Positions 7,251 through 44,522 of a stretch of DNA of 44,522 nt are shown here, piece after piece; within the stretch, counting starts at the first letter, position 1, and the number at the start of each line of letters is the position of its first letter. The stretch is taken from the UHGV virus genome UHGV-0355499; one strand, 5' to 3'. Under the pieces are notes generated by a model. It searched no databases and was not told where the DNA came from. It saw only the letters and a list, made by a program, of their open reading frames with translations. This DNA is from a virus. The position numbers and the translations under genes were made by a program.

Positions 7251-8069
7251 TCAAAATGCTGAATTAGCAACGGATATAGCCGACTTTTTCCCCATTACCA
7301 TCAATTTATCCAGTGTCATACTTCGCAGATTGTCGCTGTGGATCACCAGATACCCTGCCCGCTCAGCGATCTCTTTGAAAGCGTCAAAGGTCATCAGATG
7401 TTCGCCTTTGGCAACATGGCGCATCCCGGTCACTTTTCCATTTTTGATAGTGGTGATAAAAGAAAAATCTGGAATGGTTGGGTGATTTTCATCGAGTAGC
7501 AGGCAGTGGATGTATTCAATCGCCTCTAACATTTGCGTCTGTGACAGTTGTTCTATGTGAGAGACGGCGAAGCGTTGATGAATCATGGTGTAGGCATCGG
7601 GATACATCATGCCTTTCTTGCCGACCAGTATATTAACGGCATCACGCAAGGGAGTACGGTCATCGGTAGTTGTACTCCGCCTCTCTGGACGCTGGCTAAA
7701 ATAACAATCTTCCAGCTTTTCGAAAACTTCCCAGGCCTGTTCTGTTTCCAGCATTTTGGCATGGCGAGCTGCGCCGCGTTCTGTCCAGAGAATGAGGGAT
7801 CGGGTATGTTTAGCAACTGACTGACTATCTGTCAGTCTGTTTTTGAAGTCGCGTAATTCATTACCTTCCAGCTTAAAAAAATGCTTTCCTACGACAAATC
7901 TGGCGATGTTGCGCTTGAAGTTTTGCTGGATACCATTTACTTCCGTGCCATACAAACTGGCAAGCAATTCAGTAGTGATGACGGGAAGTTGGTTATGATG
8001 TAGCGGAGAAAGGGATTCCGCAGATATTTGGACTGTCATCGCAGTGGCCTCACTTAGTGTTTTTTTCAT
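7251..8069 (-). CDS. phage antirepressor (Ant-like)
   Basis: N-terminal region (LPVITTELLASLYGTEVNGIQQNFKRNIARFVVGKHFFKLEGNELRDFKN) resembles phage antirepressor N-terminal domains; ORF-track start at 8087 is TTG, first ATG at ~8069. Confidence 0.7.
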   Translation of the reverse strand: MKKTLSEATAMTVQISAESLSPLHHNQLPVITTELLASLYGTEVNGIQQNFKRNIARFVVGKHFFKLEGNELRDFKNRLTDSQSVAKHTRSLILWTERGAARHAKMLETEQAWEVFEKLEDCYFSQRPERRSTTTDDRTPLRDAVNILVGKKGMMYPDAYTMIHQRFAVSHIEQLSQTQMLEAIEYIHCLLLDENHPTIPDFSFITTIKNGKVTGMRHVAKGEHLMTFDAFKEIAERAGYLVIHSDNLRSMTLDKLMVMGKKSAISVANSAF

Positions 8070-8311
8070 CACCACCAGCGACGCCAATCATCTGGTGGTG
8101 AGCTGTGCAGGGTTGGCGTAACCGGCTAAGTGAACCCGGCGCTTCCACAGAAGCCCCCACACAGCCCACCATAATGCGAATGTGGCCGTGCCTAACACAT
8201 AAAAAAACCGCTAACGCGGCTATGCGTCACTTAGATATCCGGGACGCCAATCCCGGCAACCGATTTTGCGGCTGCGCGGAAACTATAGCCCCGGACTTTT
8301 TCTAAGTCAAT

Positions 8312-9487: not shown

Positions 9488-9898
9488 TCACGCCCCTTTC
9501 TTTGCTATCGGAGTGATGGAACTCAGCAGCAGGCGGCAGCGACCAGGCGCGCCAATGCGCTGCCCGGTTATCTTGTCGTAAGTTTCATGCGGTGAGGCAC
9601 ACCAGGTTGTCGCTGTTTCGTGGAGTTTCACTTGCCGCTCACCATTTCTGCGAATCGCGATCCCGGTGTGCGTTTTGCCCTTACGTTTCACTGCTGGCGC
9701 TGCGGCTACGGATGCCTGACGGGCAGGCTTAGCAGGGGTTGAAAAATTGCCTGCTTTAGGTCTTGGCACAAAAACCGCGCGAGTGCGCGCACGTGGCCCG
9801 ACGTTCATATTCCACAAAATGACGTCGAGATAGTTTTTACCGTCGTCTATGTGTCCTTTGTCCGACGGGTACTCTAATTTGCCTGGAGTGGTGGTCAT
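9488..9898 (-). CDS. hypothetical phage protein
   Basis: 136-aa ORF between helicase gene and small early genes; no domain recognised. Confidence 0.4.
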   Translation of the reverse strand: MTTTPGKLEYPSDKGHIDDGKNYLDVILWNMNVGPRARTRAVFVPRPKAGNFSTPAKPARQASVAAAPAVKRKGKTHTGIAIRRNGERQVKLHETATTWCASPHETYDKITGQRIGAPGRCRLLLSSITPIAKKGA

Positions 9899-9936
9899 TG
9901 GTCTTTCCTCGGTTATTTCACGCTGGTCAGGCGTGG

Positions 9937-12097: not shown

Positions 12098-12318
12098 ATG
12101 CCCAAAGCCTCTGAGAGAACGCGACAGCCAGCCTCATAGGCAGCGCCAGAGAGATTTTGCTCACGCAGTTTCGCTTTTTCTTCTTCGTACTTTTCCCATA
12201 CAGAACGTGCAGCTGCGACGCGGCCATCGAATATGGGGCGGATCTCTGCAACATGTGCCGGGCGTCCATTCAGGTGCCAGCCGTTACGCCAGGTAATGCG
12301 GTCAATATGTCTTAACAT
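12094..12318 (-). CDS. hypothetical phage protein
   Basis: 74-aa ORF, 4-nt overlap with replication gene. Confidence 0.4.
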   Translation of the reverse strand: MLRHIDRITWRNGWHLNGRPAHVAEIRPIFDGRVAAARSVWEKYEEEKAKLREQNLSGAAYEAGCRVLSEALGI

Positions 12319-12357
12319 CGGTCTTTCCTCGGTATAAGTTAAACGCTGGTCAGGCGC

Positions 12358-12834
12358 TCATGCATGGTGGTCTTGCGCAGTGCGTATCACTGCTCCTCGC
12401 GTCGCTACCAGCGCCGCTATTGCTTCGTCAATTTCCTGAATAGTTAACTCTGGCGCGAAGTGGAGATGTACAGCGTTAATCGCTTCCACCCCTTCTTTTG
12501 CCGCCAGCGTTGCCAGCAAAACGGGATCGCCCGGCGACTCCAGACGTGCCCGCCGTTCTGCGGGTAGCACGGCTTTCATCACACTGGCCAGCACCTGAGT
12601 TTTTCGGCGCGCCGCCGTTGTCTCGCCACGTAACCAGCGAAAGATTTTCTGCCGATTGTTGTTGATGGCTCTCCAGTCCACGTTGCCGTCCGCGTCCTCA
12701 AATTCATGTAGTCTCAACTCATCATTGCGTCCCTGACTGAACCAGGCCCGGCAGATTTCAATCGTGACGAGTTCCTGCCCTGCCCTTGCCGCCCAGGTCA
12801 AAATCTCTTTTTGTAATTCCTCTTGGTTTTCCAT
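12358..12834 (-). CDS. YdaT-like protein (CII-position regulator of Rac-type prophages)
   Basis: 158-aa ORF directly downstream of Cro-like gene; segment KIFRWLRGETTAARRKTQVL...LPAERRARL resembles YdaT family as recalled from memory. Confidence 0.45.
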   Translation of the reverse strand: MENQEELQKEILTWAARAGQELVTIEICRAWFSQGRNDELRLHEFEDADGNVDWRAINNNRQKIFRWLRGETTAARRKTQVLASVMKAVLPAERRARLESPGDPVLLATLAAKEGVEAINAVHLHFAPELTIQEIDEAIAALVATRGAVIRTAQDHHA

Positions 12835-12892: not shown

Positions 12893-13124
12893 TTAAGCTG
12901 CTTCCGTTTTAGGCAAGCTGTCATCTGGGTTTGGGTAAAGATCCGGTCTAAGATCATGAGGGGTCACGCGCCATTCAAGAGCTTCAGATGTGCGCAAAAC
13001 CTCTTCACCGGGAACCCGTCCTTTGAACCAGAGGCTTACCGTTTGTGGTTTTTTCCCTAATCGCCGCCCTAACTCGGATTGACTCATTACGGAAAGAATT
13101 TTGTCTTGCAGTTGTTTATCCATA
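12893..13124 (-). CDS. Cro-like HTH regulator
   Basis: Small HTH protein (SQSELGRRLGKKPQTVSLWFKG) divergent from the CI-like gene; AAGGAG RBS before ATG at ~13124 (ORF track extends to 13159). Confidence 0.55.
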
Positions 13125-13221: not shown

Positions 13222-13635
13222 ATGAACACAAAAACGAAAAACATGGCTTTTGCTAGCCGACTACAACGGATTCTAAAAGACTTAGGCTGGTCTCAATCTG
13301 AGTTAGCTCGCCATATTGGGGTTACGGCTCAATCAGTTCAGGCATGGTGTAATGGGGTAACTCCAAGAAAAGATAAATTAGACAAGCTAGCAAAAGTGAC
13401 CGGATACCCTGTTCATTTTTTCTTCATGAATGAAGGGGAATATTTGGATGAATCCACACTACACCCGGGTAATTACAATCAAGAACTAACCCCGCAAGAA
13501 CAGGCTCTACTGCAACTATTCAGAGGACTGCCTGAGAGCGAAAAAAATAAATTAATCAATGAGCTAAAAGAAAAAAGAGAGCACTTCGATCTACTGCTAA
13601 AAGAACTACTTGAAGCCAAAAACCAGACAAAATAG
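13222..13635 (+). CDS. CI-like XRE-family repressor (HTH only, no S24 peptidase domain)
   Basis: HTH LQRILKDLGWSQSELARHIGVTAQSVQAWCNG; ~140 aa without LexA-like C-terminal protease domain; start ambiguous (13207 TTG, 13222 or 13243 ATG, possibly leaderless). Confidence 0.7.
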   Translation: MNTKTKNMAFASRLQRILKDLGWSQSELARHIGVTAQSVQAWCNGVTPRKDKLDKLAKVTGYPVHFFFMNEGEYLDESTLHPGNYNQELTPQEQALLQLFRGLPESEKNKLINELKEKREHFDLLLKELLEAKNQTK

Positions 13636-13753: not shown

Positions 13754-13782
13754 TTGACCATTACAAATACAAATTGTAAAGT
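13754..13782 (+). promoter_or_regulatory. PL-like promoter with operator-type inverted repeat TTACAA-N7-TTGTAA
   Basis: TTGACC (-35-like), 17-nt spacer, TAAAGT (-10-like); inverted repeat shares the TTACAA half-site with the cro/cI intergenic region. Confidence 0.3.
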
Positions 13783-14645
13783 CACTTTCATCAACAACGC
13801 TTACCCAGCGGCAGTTGTTCAGAAACACGTTCTGACAGCCGGAAAGACGGCACCAAATTTTGCGCGTCGGCGCCAACACGGTGACAGAGGGAAAGACTTC
13901 ACCGGCATATGGCACATGTGTCGAAGCGGTCTGGATGGAAGCGGAGCCTTAACGCGTTGTCTCCATAGCAGGTAGCCGGAATGTGCAAGCCACAGCCAGG
14001 TATGAGCGATTGATTCACCATCAAGGCGATACGGTGTGACCACCAGGGAAGAGTCCTGGCTACAACACGAGAGCGCACTTCATCGACTCAACTTTGAGCT
14101 TTGTCGTTAAATTTTGAAATGGCGGAGTGCGCTCCCGGTTGTGGTGAACAGGTGTTTAACGGGAACTCCCTGCCCGTTACCCGGTTCGATTCCGGGCGCC
14201 CATCATCAATTTGCTGTGTTTAGTCTTTGCCCAGTCCGCACGATGGGCCATTTTTTCACACAGCCAGGTTTTATCGCTGTGCCTGAGTCCCCAACAGGAG
14301 AGGCCAAACCCGCAGCGTGACACCAGGGAAAGACCGGAGGAAGTACCACGCCTGACCAGCGTTGACCATGAGCCTGACCAGCTCAAAACAGGAAAGACCA
14401 GCCCGGGCCTGACCAGCCCTGTACGGTCGTAATGGAAACATAACGACGCCGGAAACGTAACCGGCACCCTTTAGATAGCAAAAGACCCGCACAAGGCGGG
14501 CCAGTTACCCCGAACGGCGACCAAACCATTCGGATTTATCACAAGTGACCAAACTTGTGATGAGGAAAGACCAACGACACTGACGCTATGGAAGCTGATC
14601 AATATTCGCTGATCGGCTCTGAGTATACATTACCAAGGAGTCGCT

Positions 14646-14966
14646 ATGGAAGCGCGCACCATCCCAGTAACACTCTTTATTCATTATGCAACTTCAACTT
14701 TCAGCCACGAAAAGCTGCTTGTTGCGACTGTTGATATGTCAAAAAATTTTCCAGACAGGTACATCCTTCTGGAAAGCCGCGAAATTGAAATTACCGTTAA
14801 CCAGCCCGAGCCAATCGACATCATCGGTTTACAGGTCGAGCAACTGCGTGAACAAAAACAGAAAACAGTCGCCGACGCCCAACAGCGTATTGCTGCTATC
14901 GATGACAAAATCCAGCAGTTACTTTGCATCGAATACACGCCAGATACCGATGAGCTCCCCTACTAA
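14646..14966 (+). CDS. hypothetical phage early protein
   Basis: 106-aa ORF with AAGGAG RBS; first ORF of the rightward operon after the long leader. Confidence 0.5.
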   Translation: MEARTIPVTLFIHYATSTFSHEKLLVATVDMSKNFPDRYILLESREIEITVNQPEPIDIIGLQVEQLREQKQKTVADAQQRIAAIDDKIQQLLCIEYTPDTDELPY

Positions 14967-14996
14967 AAACCACTGACCTGTAATGAGGAAAGACCA

Positions 14997-17213
14997 ATGA
15001 CCATTTTTAACGGCTTGTTAGAAGCGAAAAAAGGCGCGCTCAAAAACGGCGCGATCCCGGCGCTGGCCATCGCCATCGCCGCCCCTAACAAAAAAGTTGC
15101 CGAGAACATCATCATCGGCAAATTGTGGGAAGCCTACCCTGACCACGGCGACAACTATTTCAAACCTAAAATCTGGGAAGATGCCCCGGGCCAACCGCGC
15201 CCAGGCGTCGGTGAGTTTGATGAGACGTTTGCCACAGAACACAGTTTTGATGGCGAAAAATGGGTAGTTAACACTCCTGTTGATTCAGATTGCAGTTCAG
15301 CAGATATCTCACAGGTTAGCGACCTGATGAAACTGCCGGCTCGTGAACGATTCGCCGCCGTTCTGCTGTTCAGCCACGACGCCAACGAAGTCGACAGTGA
15401 ATTGCTTGTGCAGACGCGTGAATACCTGGAGATGCTCGATAACAGTGATACTGACAGTGAGGATGAGGTTGACGCGTTTAACCGCATCGTTCTTGATGCC
15501 ATGGTGGCGTGTAAGCCCATCGAGTACATGCATATTGCTGGATTGAATAATCTGGTACATGCAATTTTGGCAAGTTGCGATACCCAGGAACAAAACCCGA
15601 CCAGTTGGACTATCTCCAAATTTATAAAAAAATGGGTAGAGAATCCCGGTAAACGAGATGAAATGCTGCCGGAGGTAAAACCAGAAACAGCATCCGCACG
15701 TCCTTACAAACAGACTCACGCCACTCTGGATCGTGAAATTGCCTGCGCCCTGTTACCTGTTGCCCCGGAAAAAATCACCCCCAGCATCCTGAAAGCGGCA
15801 GACGAAATAATCAGTCAGGACAGGGAAGATTTTAAACGCTGGTCAATGGCCTTGCGCACAACGGATCAGATCCTTGCCTATGACCGCGCATCAGTATTCG
15901 GTGTTATTCAGAGCGCCCCCGCAAAAGACACGTACCACTTCCCACAATCCCTGCGCAGTCACATCGACAACTGGCTGCAAGCTAACGGGCAGCGTGATGC
16001 AAATGCTGTTGAAGAGAAGCCAAAGGAAGCAGCACCCAAGGATGATGTAAAAGTCACCAACCACGGCGGCGGACGATTCTCAATTGATGGGATGATGTCA
16101 GAAACACCCTCAAATCAGGGCGAAAAAAGCGAAGCTGCAAATGCTGGAGAACGTAGTTTGCAGCAGTTGCGTGAGCAGTTTGTCACGCCTCGCCATGTGT
16201 ATGACGTACCTGAAAATAACGCCGTATCACAGAGGGAACCTGCAGCTATTACCCTGGCAGAAGAGACTCCTCCACAAGAACAACTTAGCGAGCAGGTAAA
16301 GGATCTGGTGCAGAACGTTGACGCGCTGGTTGAGCGGATCCATGCCGAAGAGCACAAGCGGCAGAATGCAATCTCAGCTATCGAAACGGAGTTAAAGGAC
16401 TCAGATGACACGGATAACCTGGCATTGTGGAAGAACGTATTCAAAACCGATGAGCGCTTCACCAGTGCTTTCTCTCAGAATGGCGGCGGCACATCCATCA
16501 ACGGCACTTATATAGCGATGAAAGCGACTCGCGAATTTGGGCCATTTGGTATTGGCTGGGGGGTAGAGGTGCTGGAGGAGCGCTTTGATAAAGGCGCACC
16601 AATAGTTCGCAAAAAACAGGTTGGTGAAAAAATAGAATGGGATCTGATTCAAGACGGTGTTGGCGGGTACCTATGTGAAATGCACCACACCATGAAAGTG
16701 AGAGTCTGGTACATATTGAATGGGGTACGCGGTGAGTCCGAGGCTTACGGATGCACACCTTATATCTACGACACTAAATACGGACCAACAAGCGACGGCG
16801 AAGCACCGAAGAAATCCTGGACGGATGCTGTTAAGAAAGCGCTATCCCCTCTCGGATTCAGCGCCGATATTTTCATGGGCCTGTACGACAATCCGGAATA
16901 CCGCCAGAGGAATAAAGCTGAGTTTGATATCAAGAATGCCAGCGAGAATGCGGAAGATGCTACCCGTCTGCGTAAGGAACTGGATGAGAAGCTTATCAAC
17001 GTTGCCAATACGCTGGCCGCCGCGGTAACCGCCAACGAAGTAAACAAGGTATTTGGCCTCATCGCCCGCGAAGTGGATGTACACAGGAAAGCAGCGGAAA
17101 CCAAAGGCGATAAAGAATATTCATCGTATCTGGGATCACGTCTGCGCCGTATCACCGACATTAAAACTGAACGCCTCGCCGCCCTTACCGCTGCACAGGA
17201 GCAAACAGCATGA
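14997..17213 (+). CDS. large early protein with C-terminal Rad52/Erf-like single-strand annealing domain
   Basis: 738-aa ORF; C-terminal region (...YGCTPYIYDTKYGP...KKSWTDAVKKALSPLGFSADIFMG) resembles the Rad52/Sak signature (VTDxLKRAL..FGNALG); N-terminal ~450 aa acidic, unrecognised. Confidence 0.6.
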   Translation: MTIFNGLLEAKKGALKNGAIPALAIAIAAPNKKVAENIIIGKLWEAYPDHGDNYFKPKIWEDAPGQPRPGVGEFDETFATEHSFDGEKWVVNTPVDSDCSSADISQVSDLMKLPARERFAAVLLFSHDANEVDSELLVQTREYLEMLDNSDTDSEDEVDAFNRIVLDAMVACKPIEYMHIAGLNNLVHAILASCDTQEQNPTSWTISKFIKKWVENPGKRDEMLPEVKPETASARPYKQTHATLDREIACALLPVAPEKITPSILKAADEIISQDREDFKRWSMALRTTDQILAYDRASVFGVIQSAPAKDTYHFPQSLRSHIDNWLQANGQRDANAVEEKPKEAAPKDDVKVTNHGGGRFSIDGMMSETPSNQGEKSEAANAGERSLQQLREQFVTPRHVYDVPENNAVSQREPAAITLAEETPPQEQLSEQVKDLVQNVDALVERIHAEEHKRQNAISAIETELKDSDDTDNLALWKNVFKTDERFTSAFSQNGGGTSINGTYIAMKATREFGPFGIGWGVEVLEERFDKGAPIVRKKQVGEKIEWDLIQDGVGGYLCEMHHTMKVRVWYILNGVRGESEAYGCTPYIYDTKYGPTSDGEAPKKSWTDAVKKALSPLGFSADIFMGLYDNPEYRQRNKAEFDIKNASENAEDATRLRKELDEKLINVANTLAAAVTANEVNKVFGLIAREVDVHRKAAETKGDKEYSSYLGSRLRRITDIKTERLAALTAAQEQTA

Positions 17214-17779
17214 GCACTGCTATCGCTATTGCAAAAGAATATGCCAGTCTGATTGACCTGTTAGAAACCGCCGATGAACTGACGCCAGAGATGATCGCCG
17301 ACACGCTTGAAGGCATGGAAGGAGAACTGGGAGACAAACTGGACGCCATGATGGTCATCTGCCGTAATTTACAGGGCAATGCCAATACCTGCGCTGAAGA
17401 AATGTCTCGCCTGGCAACCCGTAAGACGTCCTTTGAAGGCAAGGAAAAAGCAATTCGAAAGCATATGCTCACCTGCCTGCAAGCTGCTGGCCTGGATAAA
17501 CTGAAAACCGCAAAAAACACATTTACTGATGCACAGGGGGCTATCCGGGTAATTATCGATAGCAAAGATAAGATCCCGGATGAGTATGAGGGCGTGTCAC
17601 TTGTTGATGTAGAAACGGTTATTACACCAAACAAGCGAGCCATTAAAGAAGTGATTGAATCTGCGGAGGCGGTTGCCGCCGAAATACTGGCGCGTGGAGA
17701 AACACCACCAGCCGAGTTATTAAACCCGGTACCAGGCGCACATCTGGAACGCGGCGAACGGTCACTGAGGATACGCTAA
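17210..17779 (+). CDS. Gp157-family phage protein
   Basis: 189-aa ORF; pattern DTLEGMEGELGDKLDAMMVICRNLQ...KIPDEY matches siphovirus Gp157 family, commonly adjacent to annealase genes. Confidence 0.6.
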   Translation: MSTAIAIAKEYASLIDLLETADELTPEMIADTLEGMEGELGDKLDAMMVICRNLQGNANTCAEEMSRLATRKTSFEGKEKAIRKHMLTCLQAAGLDKLKTAKNTFTDAQGAIRVIIDSKDKIPDEYEGVSLVDVETVITPNKRAIKEVIESAEAVAAEILARGETPPAELLNPVPGAHLERGERSLRIR

Positions 17780-17961
17780 TGCTTAAACTCACATTAAAGC
17801 GTGGTGACGCGGTTCACCTGGTACTTGCCGATGGTACCAATGGCATTATTGAAGCACGGAGCCGCTGCGAACTTGGGCTACACCTGCCAGAAAACATTAA
17901 GGTCACTCGGGAGAAATCGGCATTCACCCCACAAGAACTGATTACGCCTAATCAGAAATAA
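17779..17961 (+). CDS. CsrA/RsmA-like small RNA-binding protein (putative)
   Basis: 60-aa ORF, start overlaps stop of upstream gene (TAATG); aligns end to end with CsrA (MLxLT.+.G N-terminus, LG..LP, V-x-RE near residue 44). Confidence 0.5.
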   Translation: MLKLTLKRGDAVHLVLADGTNGIIEARSRCELGLHLPENIKVTREKSAFTPQELITPNQK

Positions 17962-18010
17962 AAACTCACCATCGCTAGCATTGCGATTCACCAGACACCG
18001 GAGGATCACA

Positions 18011-18235
18011 ATGCTGCGATGGCAACCGGGAGCAACTCTGCTCTCCGCATTTGATATCAAAATTGGTCGACTGTCGGCCAGCGTCAGGAAACAGACTTTG
18101 ACCGAGTCTGATATTGCCCGTGCCTGCCAGAAGGCAGATGACGCAATAAGCTACATAATGAGGAAAGACCATGAAAAGCGATCACGACATAATCACCAGA
18201 GAAGAAATGGTCGAGCTGACGGGAAGCCCACTTAA
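18011..18235 (+). CDS. hypothetical small protein (uncertain)
   Basis: ATG at ~18011 preceded by GGAGGA RBS; overlaps the Xis-like gene in another frame. Confidence 0.25.
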   Translation: MLRWQPGATLLSAFDIKIGRLSASVRKQTLTESDIARACQKADDAISYIMRKDHEKRSRHNHQRRNGRADGKPT

Positions 18236-44385: not shown

Positions 44386-44522
44386 ATCTAACCGGCTAAC
44401 GAAAGTTTCAGGCCAGTCCTCATTGATGCGCCGCGCGATAAATGCACTCTATCTTGTGCGATAAATGGCATCCACGCGGCGTTTCATTATTTGAAAAAGA
44501 ATTACATTTCAGGTTGCGTTAT

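Follow-up and report, generated by a model that had tools for sequence, protein, structure and literature searches.

Why does one and the same short sequence stand directly before the start codons of genes that are not neighbours? The question arises in the early region of UHGV virus genome UHGV-0355499, a stretch of 44,522 nucleotides (nt) that is called the window below, in which the 11-mer GAGGAAAGACC recurs at translation starts and in an untranslated leader. An original prediction, made from the letters of the window, had noticed three such sites, assigned them to one operon and proposed a shared post-transcriptional operator, for example for a CsrA-type protein or a small RNA (sRNA), that would co-regulate recombination and excision. 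From the sequence comparisons given here we lean, at rather less than even confidence, towards the reading that GAGGAAAGACC is a start-associated RNA operator, and not just a ribosome-binding site, that would be read by a phage-encoded CsrA-like protein, the product of orf60. We infer that the motif acts in RNA, that a trans-acting reader exists, which protein this would be and in which direction it would regulate.

Copies of the motif and their conservation

Five exact copies of GAGGAAAGACC were found in the window against approximately 0.6 expected, and six matches (0.58 expected) when up to one mismatch was allowed. The 8-mer core GGAAAGAC occurred exactly 11 times (1.13 expected), and a 14-mer form of the motif was matched seven times at two mismatches or fewer, compared with 0.27 expected; none of 100 shuffles reached seven. 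The shuffles, together with conservation beyond the core, ruled out chance or a plain Shine-Dalgarno sequence as the source of the motif. The copies were located as follows.

14985..14995, plus strand: GAGGAAAGACC before the 738-amino-acid (aa) exonuclease-like gene (ATG at 14997, gap of one base), inside TAATGAGGAAAGACCA at 14981-14996
18160..18170, plus strand: motif abutting the ATG at 18171 of the excisionase-like gene (xis), inside TAATGAGGAAAGACC at 18156-18170
12320..12330, minus strand: motif one base before the ATG at 12318 of orf74, the first gene after ydaT (cII-like)
9900..9910, minus strand: motif one base before the ATG at 9898 of orf136, the first gene after dnaB
14562..14572, plus strand: full 11-mer in the PL leader, followed by ACG, with no start codon
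14389..14399, plus strand: leader copy CAGGAAAGACC, between hairpin copies
14322..14336, plus strand: leader copy CCAGGGAAAGACCGG, which can fold as a hairpin (one bulge) presenting GAAAGA
13887..13899, plus strand: leader copy GAGGGAAAGACUU

The leader copies at 13841, 13890, 14327 and 14391 had been missed originally, as had the two on the minus strand. The coordinates of the three sites first noticed were confirmed, the third copy (GATGAGGAAAGACC, 14559-14572) carrying one mismatch to the 14-mer. That this copy precedes a short open reading frame (ORF) was only loosely true: ACG follows the motif, and the next ATG, at 14588, lies 22 nt from GAGG. A small ORF at 14588-14734 (plus strand) overlaps the start of orf106, and in 15 related loci (for example L013 and L021) an ORF of 47 aa (MPTESTLIGSEYT...) begins directly at the leader motif copy, at the place where the window has ACG. 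At the xis copy, the first bases are overlapped by the stop codon TGA of a small ORF upstream. Of 67 large related loci, 42 have kept this unannotated ORF (MLRWQPGA..., 18010-18235, plus strand), which lies between orf60 and xis and runs into the xis motif at its end; in most relatives its TGA is fused to GGAAAGACC.

The assignment to one operon could not be upheld, since the minus-strand copies at 9900-9910 and 12320-12330 place the sites in two divergent operons, with two exact start-site copies on the minus strand. Of the two genes named originally, the excisionase-like one was borne out (DUF4224 in Pfam, excisionase in PHROGs). The 738-aa gene, which had been taken for Rad52-like, gave no match in Pfam and was called an exonuclease by PHROGs. 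Co-regulation of recombination and excision described only a part of the motif-led set, to which the first genes of the replication and nin-like modules also belong.

The motif stood at four of the 18 early gene starts, the other 14 having ordinary and varied Shine-Dalgarno regions, and no copy was found in front of the late genes of the window. The motif-bearing junctions were non-overlapping and lay at the borders of functional modules, and other genes were joined by overlapping stops and starts. The motif was predicted to be single-stranded beside a stable hairpin.

Relatives were collected by scanning viral contigs for the motif together with its partner hairpin (hpA, described below), which gave at least 120 loci with at least 119 distinct units and 1.1 Mb of related sequence. 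Among the loci listed, GGAAAGACC occurred 658 times against approximately 8 expected. An ORF of 40 aa or more began no further than 8 nt away from 344 of these copies, and 322 of the 344 stood 0-4 nt before ATG. The other 314 had no ORF start, and about half of those were hairpin loops with covarying stems. In linear copies without an ORF the motif was complete, and the triplet after it varied between phages (ATG, ACG, ATA or ACA), indicating that the motif was kept where no ORF was conserved. Gene content and gene order were common to the motif loci, indicating a single phage lineage. When species-representative genomes were searched, all loci with at least two composite matches belonged to Enterobacterales (Escherichia, Citrobacter, Enterobacter, Raoultella, Shimwellia, Serratia and Rosenbergiella), and scattered single composite matches outside this order were at chance level.

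A sample independent of the motif was obtained by retrieving loci through homology to the 738-aa protein. At the exonuclease junction the exact 11-mer was present in 34/34 informative distinct upstream regions; the homologues shared 48-100% amino acid identity, and the unit was abutted by the ends of four or more different upstream genes. At the xis junction of the same loci it was exact in 26/28 distinct upstream regions, including those of excisionases at 35-40% identity, and a non-homologous excisionase family was also preceded by the motif. In contrast, the best-shared 11-mer at the gam junction of these loci was found in only 15 of 28 contexts. Altogether the motif stands before 12 unrelated protein families. 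In 60 distinct independently retrieved loci, the 9-mer was found 335 times in sense and 0 times in antisense orientation. Conservation in related phages, the lack of which would have refuted the original prediction on its own terms, was thus found at both the exonuclease and the xis junctions. The proposal of a shared post-transcriptional operator stood in so far as the sense-only orientation, the exact conservation in homologues and the start-less and hairpin copies point to an RNA-level element beyond the Shine-Dalgarno sequence; regulation through this element we infer.

Partner hairpins and the leader transcript

Alignment of the flanks of the motif copies revealed a second element, hpA (GCCTGACCAGC), with five exact copies in the window, all in sense orientation. 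It is a hairpin with the 7-nt loop CUGACCA. The usual unit consists of a stop codon, the hairpin 0-5 nt further on, an AU-rich spacer of approximately 10-25 nt, GAGGAAAGACC, 0-4 nt and AUG. The following hairpins of this kind were found.

9919..9935, minus strand: hpA CACGC-CUGACCA-GCGUG, beginning 4 nt past the stop codon of dnaB, with the motif 11 nt further downstream
12341..12359, minus strand: hpA with loop CUGACCA, its 5' strand overlapping the ydaT stop codon TGA
14347..14420, plus strand: three leader copies of hpA, with cores at 14350-14360, 14372-14382 and 14407-14417 and stems ACGC/GCGU, GAGC/GCUC and GGGC/GCCC
14970..14982, plus strand: decayed hpA CCACUGACCUGUA, upstream of the exonuclease motif
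14538-14561, plus strand: 9-bp hairpin with loop GACCAA, ahead of the leader 11-mer that is followed by ACG

Inside the window the stems of hpA differ by compensation (CACGC/GCGUG, GAGC/GCUC and GGGC/GCCC). At the exonuclease junction, where the hpA of the window has decayed, most relatives had an intact hairpin with the loop NUGACCN (GGCGC-NUGACCN-GCGCC). No hairpin was found with the xis copy of the motif.

Covariation of hpA was evaluated in 226 distinct CTGACCA contexts from the 1.1 Mb of related loci, the loop being fixed by the search. Fewer than three closing pairs were present in approximately 126 of the 226, near a rough chance estimate of approximately 135, and the other 100 had at least three. 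Among these 100 retained hairpins the two pairs beside the loop were G-C or C-G in 90-91%, and the fourth pair, which was unselected, was paired in 91% (GC 60, AU 16, GU 15). None of 500 shuffles reached the observed covariation score. The conserved loop together with the covarying stem indicated a folded single strand and not a double-stranded DNA operator. A role of hpA in single-stranded DNA or replication polarity was rejected, as the copy at 12345 tracks transcription and not the fork, provided that the origin lies in the O-like gene; this is an argument from a single site.

The operons in which these units lie were ordered as follows. On the minus strand, cro is followed by ydaT (cII-like), orf74, the O-like gene, dnaB, orf136, a theta-like gene and more small genes. 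On the plus strand, the PL-like promoter is followed by an untranslated leader of approximately 860 nt, orf106, the 738-aa gene, the Gam-like gene Gp157, orf60, the DUF4224 excisionase-like gene and the integrase gene. The control region and the leader contained the following features.

12893-13123, minus strand: Cro-like gene, diverging from the cI-like gene
13243-13635, plus strand: short cI-like gene, diverging from the Cro-like gene
13754..13782, plus strand: PL-like promoter TTGACC-17-TAAAGT, with operator-like repeats on both sides
13789..13851, plus strand: conserved 5' end of the PL transcript, comprising three hairpins, of which the first is long and has an hpA-like loop and the last is hpB
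13838..13851, plus strand: hpB, GCCG-GAAAGA-CGGC, the third hairpin of this 5' end
14148-14258, plus strand: RprA-like leader module, AUUUGCUGUGUUUAGUCUUUGCC followed by an intrinsic terminator
14208-14256, plus strand: invariant UUGCUGUGU(G/U)UAGUCUUUGCC followed by the intrinsic terminator, whose stem covaries in relatives

One copy of hpB thus lies inside the initial 65 nt of the transcript from PL. Hairpins of this kind have the form NNNG-GAAAGA-CNNN, with stems that covary in relatives (GCCG/CGGC, GCGG/CCGC, UCUG/CAGG and UGUGG/CCAC). The loop of the long 5' hairpin resembles that of hpA (CUAACCA or UUACCCA). The whole 5' segment was kept in relatives with entirely different promoters and operators, the transcript start being the same as that from the PL of the window, and it folded better than shuffled sequences (z = -2.8). 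When the 5' end of the leader was compared by blastn with a phage collection, only two unannotated relatives, labelled Stenotrophomonas phages, were found.

A short core was common to the hpA loop CUGACCA, the 3' half of the motif (AAGACCA), GAAAGAC of hpB and AUGACC at the start codon, the last following the motif in 35% of distinct contexts. GACCA occurred eight times in 346 nt of the distal leader, compared with approximately one per kb in the window, and 0 times in antisense. The core of the putative operator is GGAAAGAC, and a shorter repeat, (A/U)GACCA, is possibly what it comes down to. A strong intrinsic terminator (14234-14256) stands in the leader with motif copies on both sides of it, so that transcription from PL must read through, and a role in antitermination or attenuation may be considered.

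The candidate reader and competing explanations

The gene proposed as the source of the reader lies in the PL operon, between gam and xis.

17779..17961, plus strand: orf60, 60 aa, candidate CsrA-like RNA-binding protein, its start overlapping the gam stop codon

The resemblance of its product (MLKLTLKRGD...ELGLHLPENIKVTRE) to CsrA was recognized by eye on the translation. A candidate gene for the CsrA-type protein of the original prediction was present at 17779-17961, but its similarity to CsrA was weak and sub-threshold. No match was obtained when E. coli CsrA was searched against the window by tblastn, and no CsrA match when the window proteins were compared with Pfam at E 0.01. In a permissive Pfam scan, CsrA (PF02599) was the top family for 16 of 23 orf60 members, with a best E value of 9e-4; the orf60 of the window itself aligned colinearly with this family (1-45 to 1-45) at E 0.097 and 13.1 bits, below the gathering cut-off of 27. 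Using hhalign, orf60 was aligned with four CsrA/RsmA sequences from 1-47 to 1-47 with P 0.0016 and a probability of only 16%. The alignment with CsrA retains L2, L4, G33, P37 and R44, and in the close orf60 family L2, L4 and R44 show little or no variation. The AlphaFold monomer model (predicted local distance difference test, pLDDT, 76) has four predicted strands, which match the positions of beta1-beta4 of CsrA. Three fold searches with orf60 gave no match and left the CsrA fold unconfirmed. The family has 15 representatives in 1.84 billion proteins and was found in Enterobacterales only, and its most divergent members lose the residue aligned with R44 of CsrA; these points are either against its identity with CsrA or neutral. 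The gene was present in 111/111 loci holding gam and xis; among 102 loci obtained by other criteria, 98 had neither orf60 nor the motif, three had both and one had the motif only. Taken together, the CsrA-like nature of orf60 is a weak lead, with a similarity below the family thresholds.

Under the reading that we tentatively favour, each module that is translated independently would have the operator across the Shine-Dalgarno sequence of its first gene; these genes are the exonuclease gene (recombination), the excisionase gene, orf74 (at the head of the replication genes) and orf136 (at the head of the nin-like genes). A sequence-specific RNA-binding protein would read these sites, the best candidate being orf60, produced by the PL operon itself. 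Once enough orf60 has been made, its binding over the Shine-Dalgarno sequence would adjust how strongly the lead genes are translated, most probably by repression. The leader copies, which lie on either side of the leader terminator, may serve as high-affinity entry, decoy or attenuation sites. In this way the motif would couple lead-gene translation across four modules, and perhaps leader read-through too.

A further step, which we regard as possible but doubtful, is that the lineage carries its own miniature Csr/TRAP-like circuit consisting of orf60, a GGAAAGAC(C) or (A/U)GACCA operator and a decoy/attenuator array in the PL leader. If it does, early gene translation would be timed independently of the cI/Cro transcriptional switch. 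If orf60 is the reader, the phage would bear a Csr-type regulon over recombination, replication and excision, a layer of the lysis-lysogeny decision beyond repressors and antiterminators, and the pair of protein and RNA operator would be compact and orthogonal enough to be of use in synthetic biology.

Some points weigh against orf60 as the reader of a translational operator. Both orf60 and the motif belong to a single syntenic phage lineage, so that their joint presence is confounded by shared ancestry and does not count as independent support. Since hpA is without GGA, it falls outside the classical CsrA model of two sites. Finally, the motif copies at the extreme 5' end of the PL transcript, before the terminator, fit antitermination of the nut/put type equally well.

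Antitermination is the alternative that survives best, and we consider it unlikely. In this explanation hpA and GGAAAGAC(C) form a bipartite RNA site, like boxB and boxA of lambda, and the overlap with the Shine-Dalgarno sequence is secondary; the site would load a phage factor (an N analogue, for example the basic orf136 or orf74) or act directly on RNA polymerase, so that transcripts from PL and PR would pass the leader terminator and signals further along. The layout of the leader agrees with this, as the initial 65 nt of the transcript from PL contain an hpA-like hairpin and hpB, which are kept despite differing promoters and operators, and a strong intrinsic terminator follows further along. 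The first hairpin-plus-motif unit of PR comes after cro and ydaT, a place like that of nutR, the loops are conserved and the stems covary as in boxB, and no N gene is annotated. As in lambda N/nut and HK022 put, a conserved hairpin and a linear element are found near the PL start, after the first PR genes and ahead of terminators. However, lambda has one nut site per operon, compared with 5-10 copies here, four of them at 0-2 nt from start codons with fixed spacing. Unlike in lambda nut, the hairpin comes before the linear element, there is no boxA consensus, and the linear element overlaps start sites. Three short hairpins are present here instead of the two-stem putL/putR; no sequence similarity to HK022 putL was found, and no resemblance was seen by eye in the PL-nun region. 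Moreover, no arginine-rich N-like protein was found in the annotation or by Pfam, and the hairpin is missing at the xis copy. As a separate observation, the motif-led orf136 (9488-9898, minus strand) is basic and has a conserved arginine-rich stretch, G(P/A)RAR(T/S)R(A/S)VFV, which makes it a possible alternative RNA-binding candidate.

The unit might instead be an initiation cassette that needs no factor and serves as a recombination linker, an explanation to which we give a low probability. It would combine a strong Shine-Dalgarno sequence, an unstructured A-rich spacer and an insulating hairpin that also stabilises the upstream 3' end, its identity being kept by recombination at the module borders of mosaic phages. 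The units do occur only at non-overlapping junctions bounding functional modules, the motif is predicted to be single-stranded beside a stable hairpin, and the genes upstream of the exonuclease unit and the excisionase families downstream of the motif differ. Such a cassette, however, leaves unexplained the start-less copies and the copies in covarying leader hairpin loops, the conserved hpA loop with its compensating stem, and the 100% identity of AAAGACC, bases that have no pairing partner at the 3' end of 16S ribosomal RNA (rRNA). A 7-nt complement of the motif or hpA loop, UGGUCUU, lies in an internal head-domain helix of E. coli 16S rRNA and was judged coincidental. A test for mosaic breakpoints downstream of dnaB was uninformative, as a single downstream family was present in the 29 close relatives.

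It is just as improbable that the reader is a host factor, for example CsrA acting on the AGGA of the motif and on GGA in hairpin loops, with orf60 as a competitor or irrelevant; early phage translation would then be tied to host physiology. GGA at hairpin loops or over Shine-Dalgarno sequences is a feature of CsrA targets and of CsrB. In agreement with this, AGGA of the motif overlaps the Shine-Dalgarno sequence, leader copies present GGA at hairpin loops, and the lineage is confined to Enterobacterales. On the other hand, the invariance reaches past GGA to GGAAAGACC, unlike the CsrA consensus (RUACARGGAUGU), and hpA is without GGA.

Pairing of the motif with an sRNA, the other version of the original prediction, was very improbable. 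The proposed partner is the RprA-like leader RNA (ending at 14256), whose GUCUUU by the terminator would pair with AAAGAC and block or open ribosome-binding sites; an invariant UGCUGUGU(G/U)UAGUCUUUGCC upstream of a terminator with a covarying stem, and six contiguous bases complementary to the motif in the same leader, speak for it. It was rejected as the main explanation because this module, the sole complementary conserved RNA, is widespread without the motif (approximately 86 of 90 further viral loci) and matches the 3' part of host RprA, hence is not specific to the system, and because seed variants (L078, L087) were without matching changes in the motif; pairing beyond 6 bp would also require the terminator stem to be opened.

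Described analogues and further features of the phage

The closest described analogue of the motif is the set of start-associated sequences (SAS) and extended SAS of Cluster K mycobacteriophages, in which SAS have a 13-bp consensus, GGGATAGGAGCCC (Pope et al. 2011, PMC3203893). Both are short asymmetric repeats (13 bp in SAS, 11 here) with a Shine-Dalgarno core and conserved bases unable to pair with 16S rRNA. Both stand a few bases before start codons, mostly ATG, in a single orientation, in the non-structural region only and before unrelated gene families, and about half of the copies have an inverted repeat upstream. Sequence and host phylum are unrelated, the hosts here being Enterobacterales, so that the motif is an analogue and not a family member. 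For the inverted repeats of SAS, RNA pairing was unsupported and DNA sites were proposed (PMC3203893). Here, in contrast, the stems covary and the loop is conserved, and many copies lie in an untranslated leader, some of them in hairpin loops without a start codon. A full-text literature search for the motif strings returned only unrelated primers, and no description of the motif was found in the literature searched. A repeat of a similar kind to SAS is on record for Citrobacter phage Mordin. Since 2011, SAS have been an unexplained oddity of one mycobacteriophage group, and the motif of an E. coli prophage offers an independent and more tractable example. With E. coli as host, a common prophage (492 of 5,426 genomes), clear signatures of action in RNA and a candidate reader, the role of start-associated motifs can be tested by standard genetics.

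Likeness to known translational regulators was partial in each case. With CsrA/RsmA and CsrB the system shares a protein of approximately 60 aa, predicted to be beta-rich, and repeated GGA sites over Shine-Dalgarno sequences and at loops of non-coding leader hairpins: every start-type copy has GGA overlapping the Shine-Dalgarno region, and in hpB the GGA is placed where stem and loop meet. It differs in that the conserved site is GGAAAGAC(C) and not the CsrA consensus, in that the partner hairpin is without GGA, and in that the putative decoys are part of an mRNA leader and not a separate sRNA as in CsrB. Bacillus TRAP (MtrB) is likewise a small protein with short repeats in a terminator-bearing leader and over the ribosome-binding sites of other genes, to which the GACCA and GGAAAGAC repeats in the leader with its terminator and at four ribosome-binding sites are parallel; repeat sequence and spacing differ, and no ligand is known here. 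T4 RegA, an early phage protein, shuts off many early mRNAs by binding where their translation is initiated, which is the kind of logic proposed here. However, RegA sites are AU-rich and poorly conserved, in contrast to an exact 11-mer with accessory hairpins, and there is no homology.

The window is the circularly permuted genome of a temperate phage with a lambda-like head, a sheathed tail, Q, holins and an integrase. The integrase gene adjoins attP, which matches sites adjacent to the leucine transfer RNA (tRNA-Leu) gene. The early region was 100% identical to a prophage in 492 of 5,426 complete E. coli genomes, among them those of sequence type ST131.

Searches of Rfam at gathering and permissive thresholds returned only isrK/C4 elsewhere in the window and the weak RprA match in the leader. 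The latter reached 37.4 bits against RF00034, below the gathering cut-off of 70, and its close match was confined to the 3' part, AUUGCUGUGU(G/U)UAGUCUUUGCC and the terminator. The RprA 20-mer with covarying terminator stems is present in the 90 further viral loci mentioned above with variable 5' sequences, approximately 86 of these loci lacking hpA as well as the motif; some of the 5' parts contain CACAACA. These loci may belong to a prophage 'anti-sRNA' class, reportedly described by Tree and colleagues in 2014 as having conserved 3' regions. Just upstream of the module, a hairpin resembling a T-arm (CCGGUUCGAUUCCGG, 14124-14204, plus strand), also present in L006 and L090, matched tRNA-Sec of Rfam weakly (19 bits); ARAGORN found no tRNA in the leader. 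This hairpin may be a tRNA remnant or mimic. The leader stretch at 13903-14074 (plus strand) is part of a segment of approximately 310 nt that is present here and missing from most relatives. It showed 70-77% identity to unannotated non-coding DNA of Salmonella phage SPN1S, Enterobacter phage Tyrion, Klebsiella phages and P1/P7, the matching stretch of P1 lying between tRNA-Ile and ban.

The isrK/C4 matches were those of C4 antisense RNA, its a1/b1 targets and isrK, all at gathering level at 8091-8288 (minus strand) and upstream of an ORF6N antirepressor gene at 7251-8087. They represent an RNA immunity module of the P1/P7 type in a prophage of lambdoid style, whose cI-like repressor has no peptidase domain. 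At the ends of the window, 44427-44522 together with 1-1806 (approximately 1.9 kb) was missing in most E. coli genomes carrying the prophage, where matches begin at 1807. A hypothetical gene appears to be split by this segment, with 8 bp of overlapping coordinates that suggest a target duplication, and the segment encodes a Mor-family transcription activator at 91-477.

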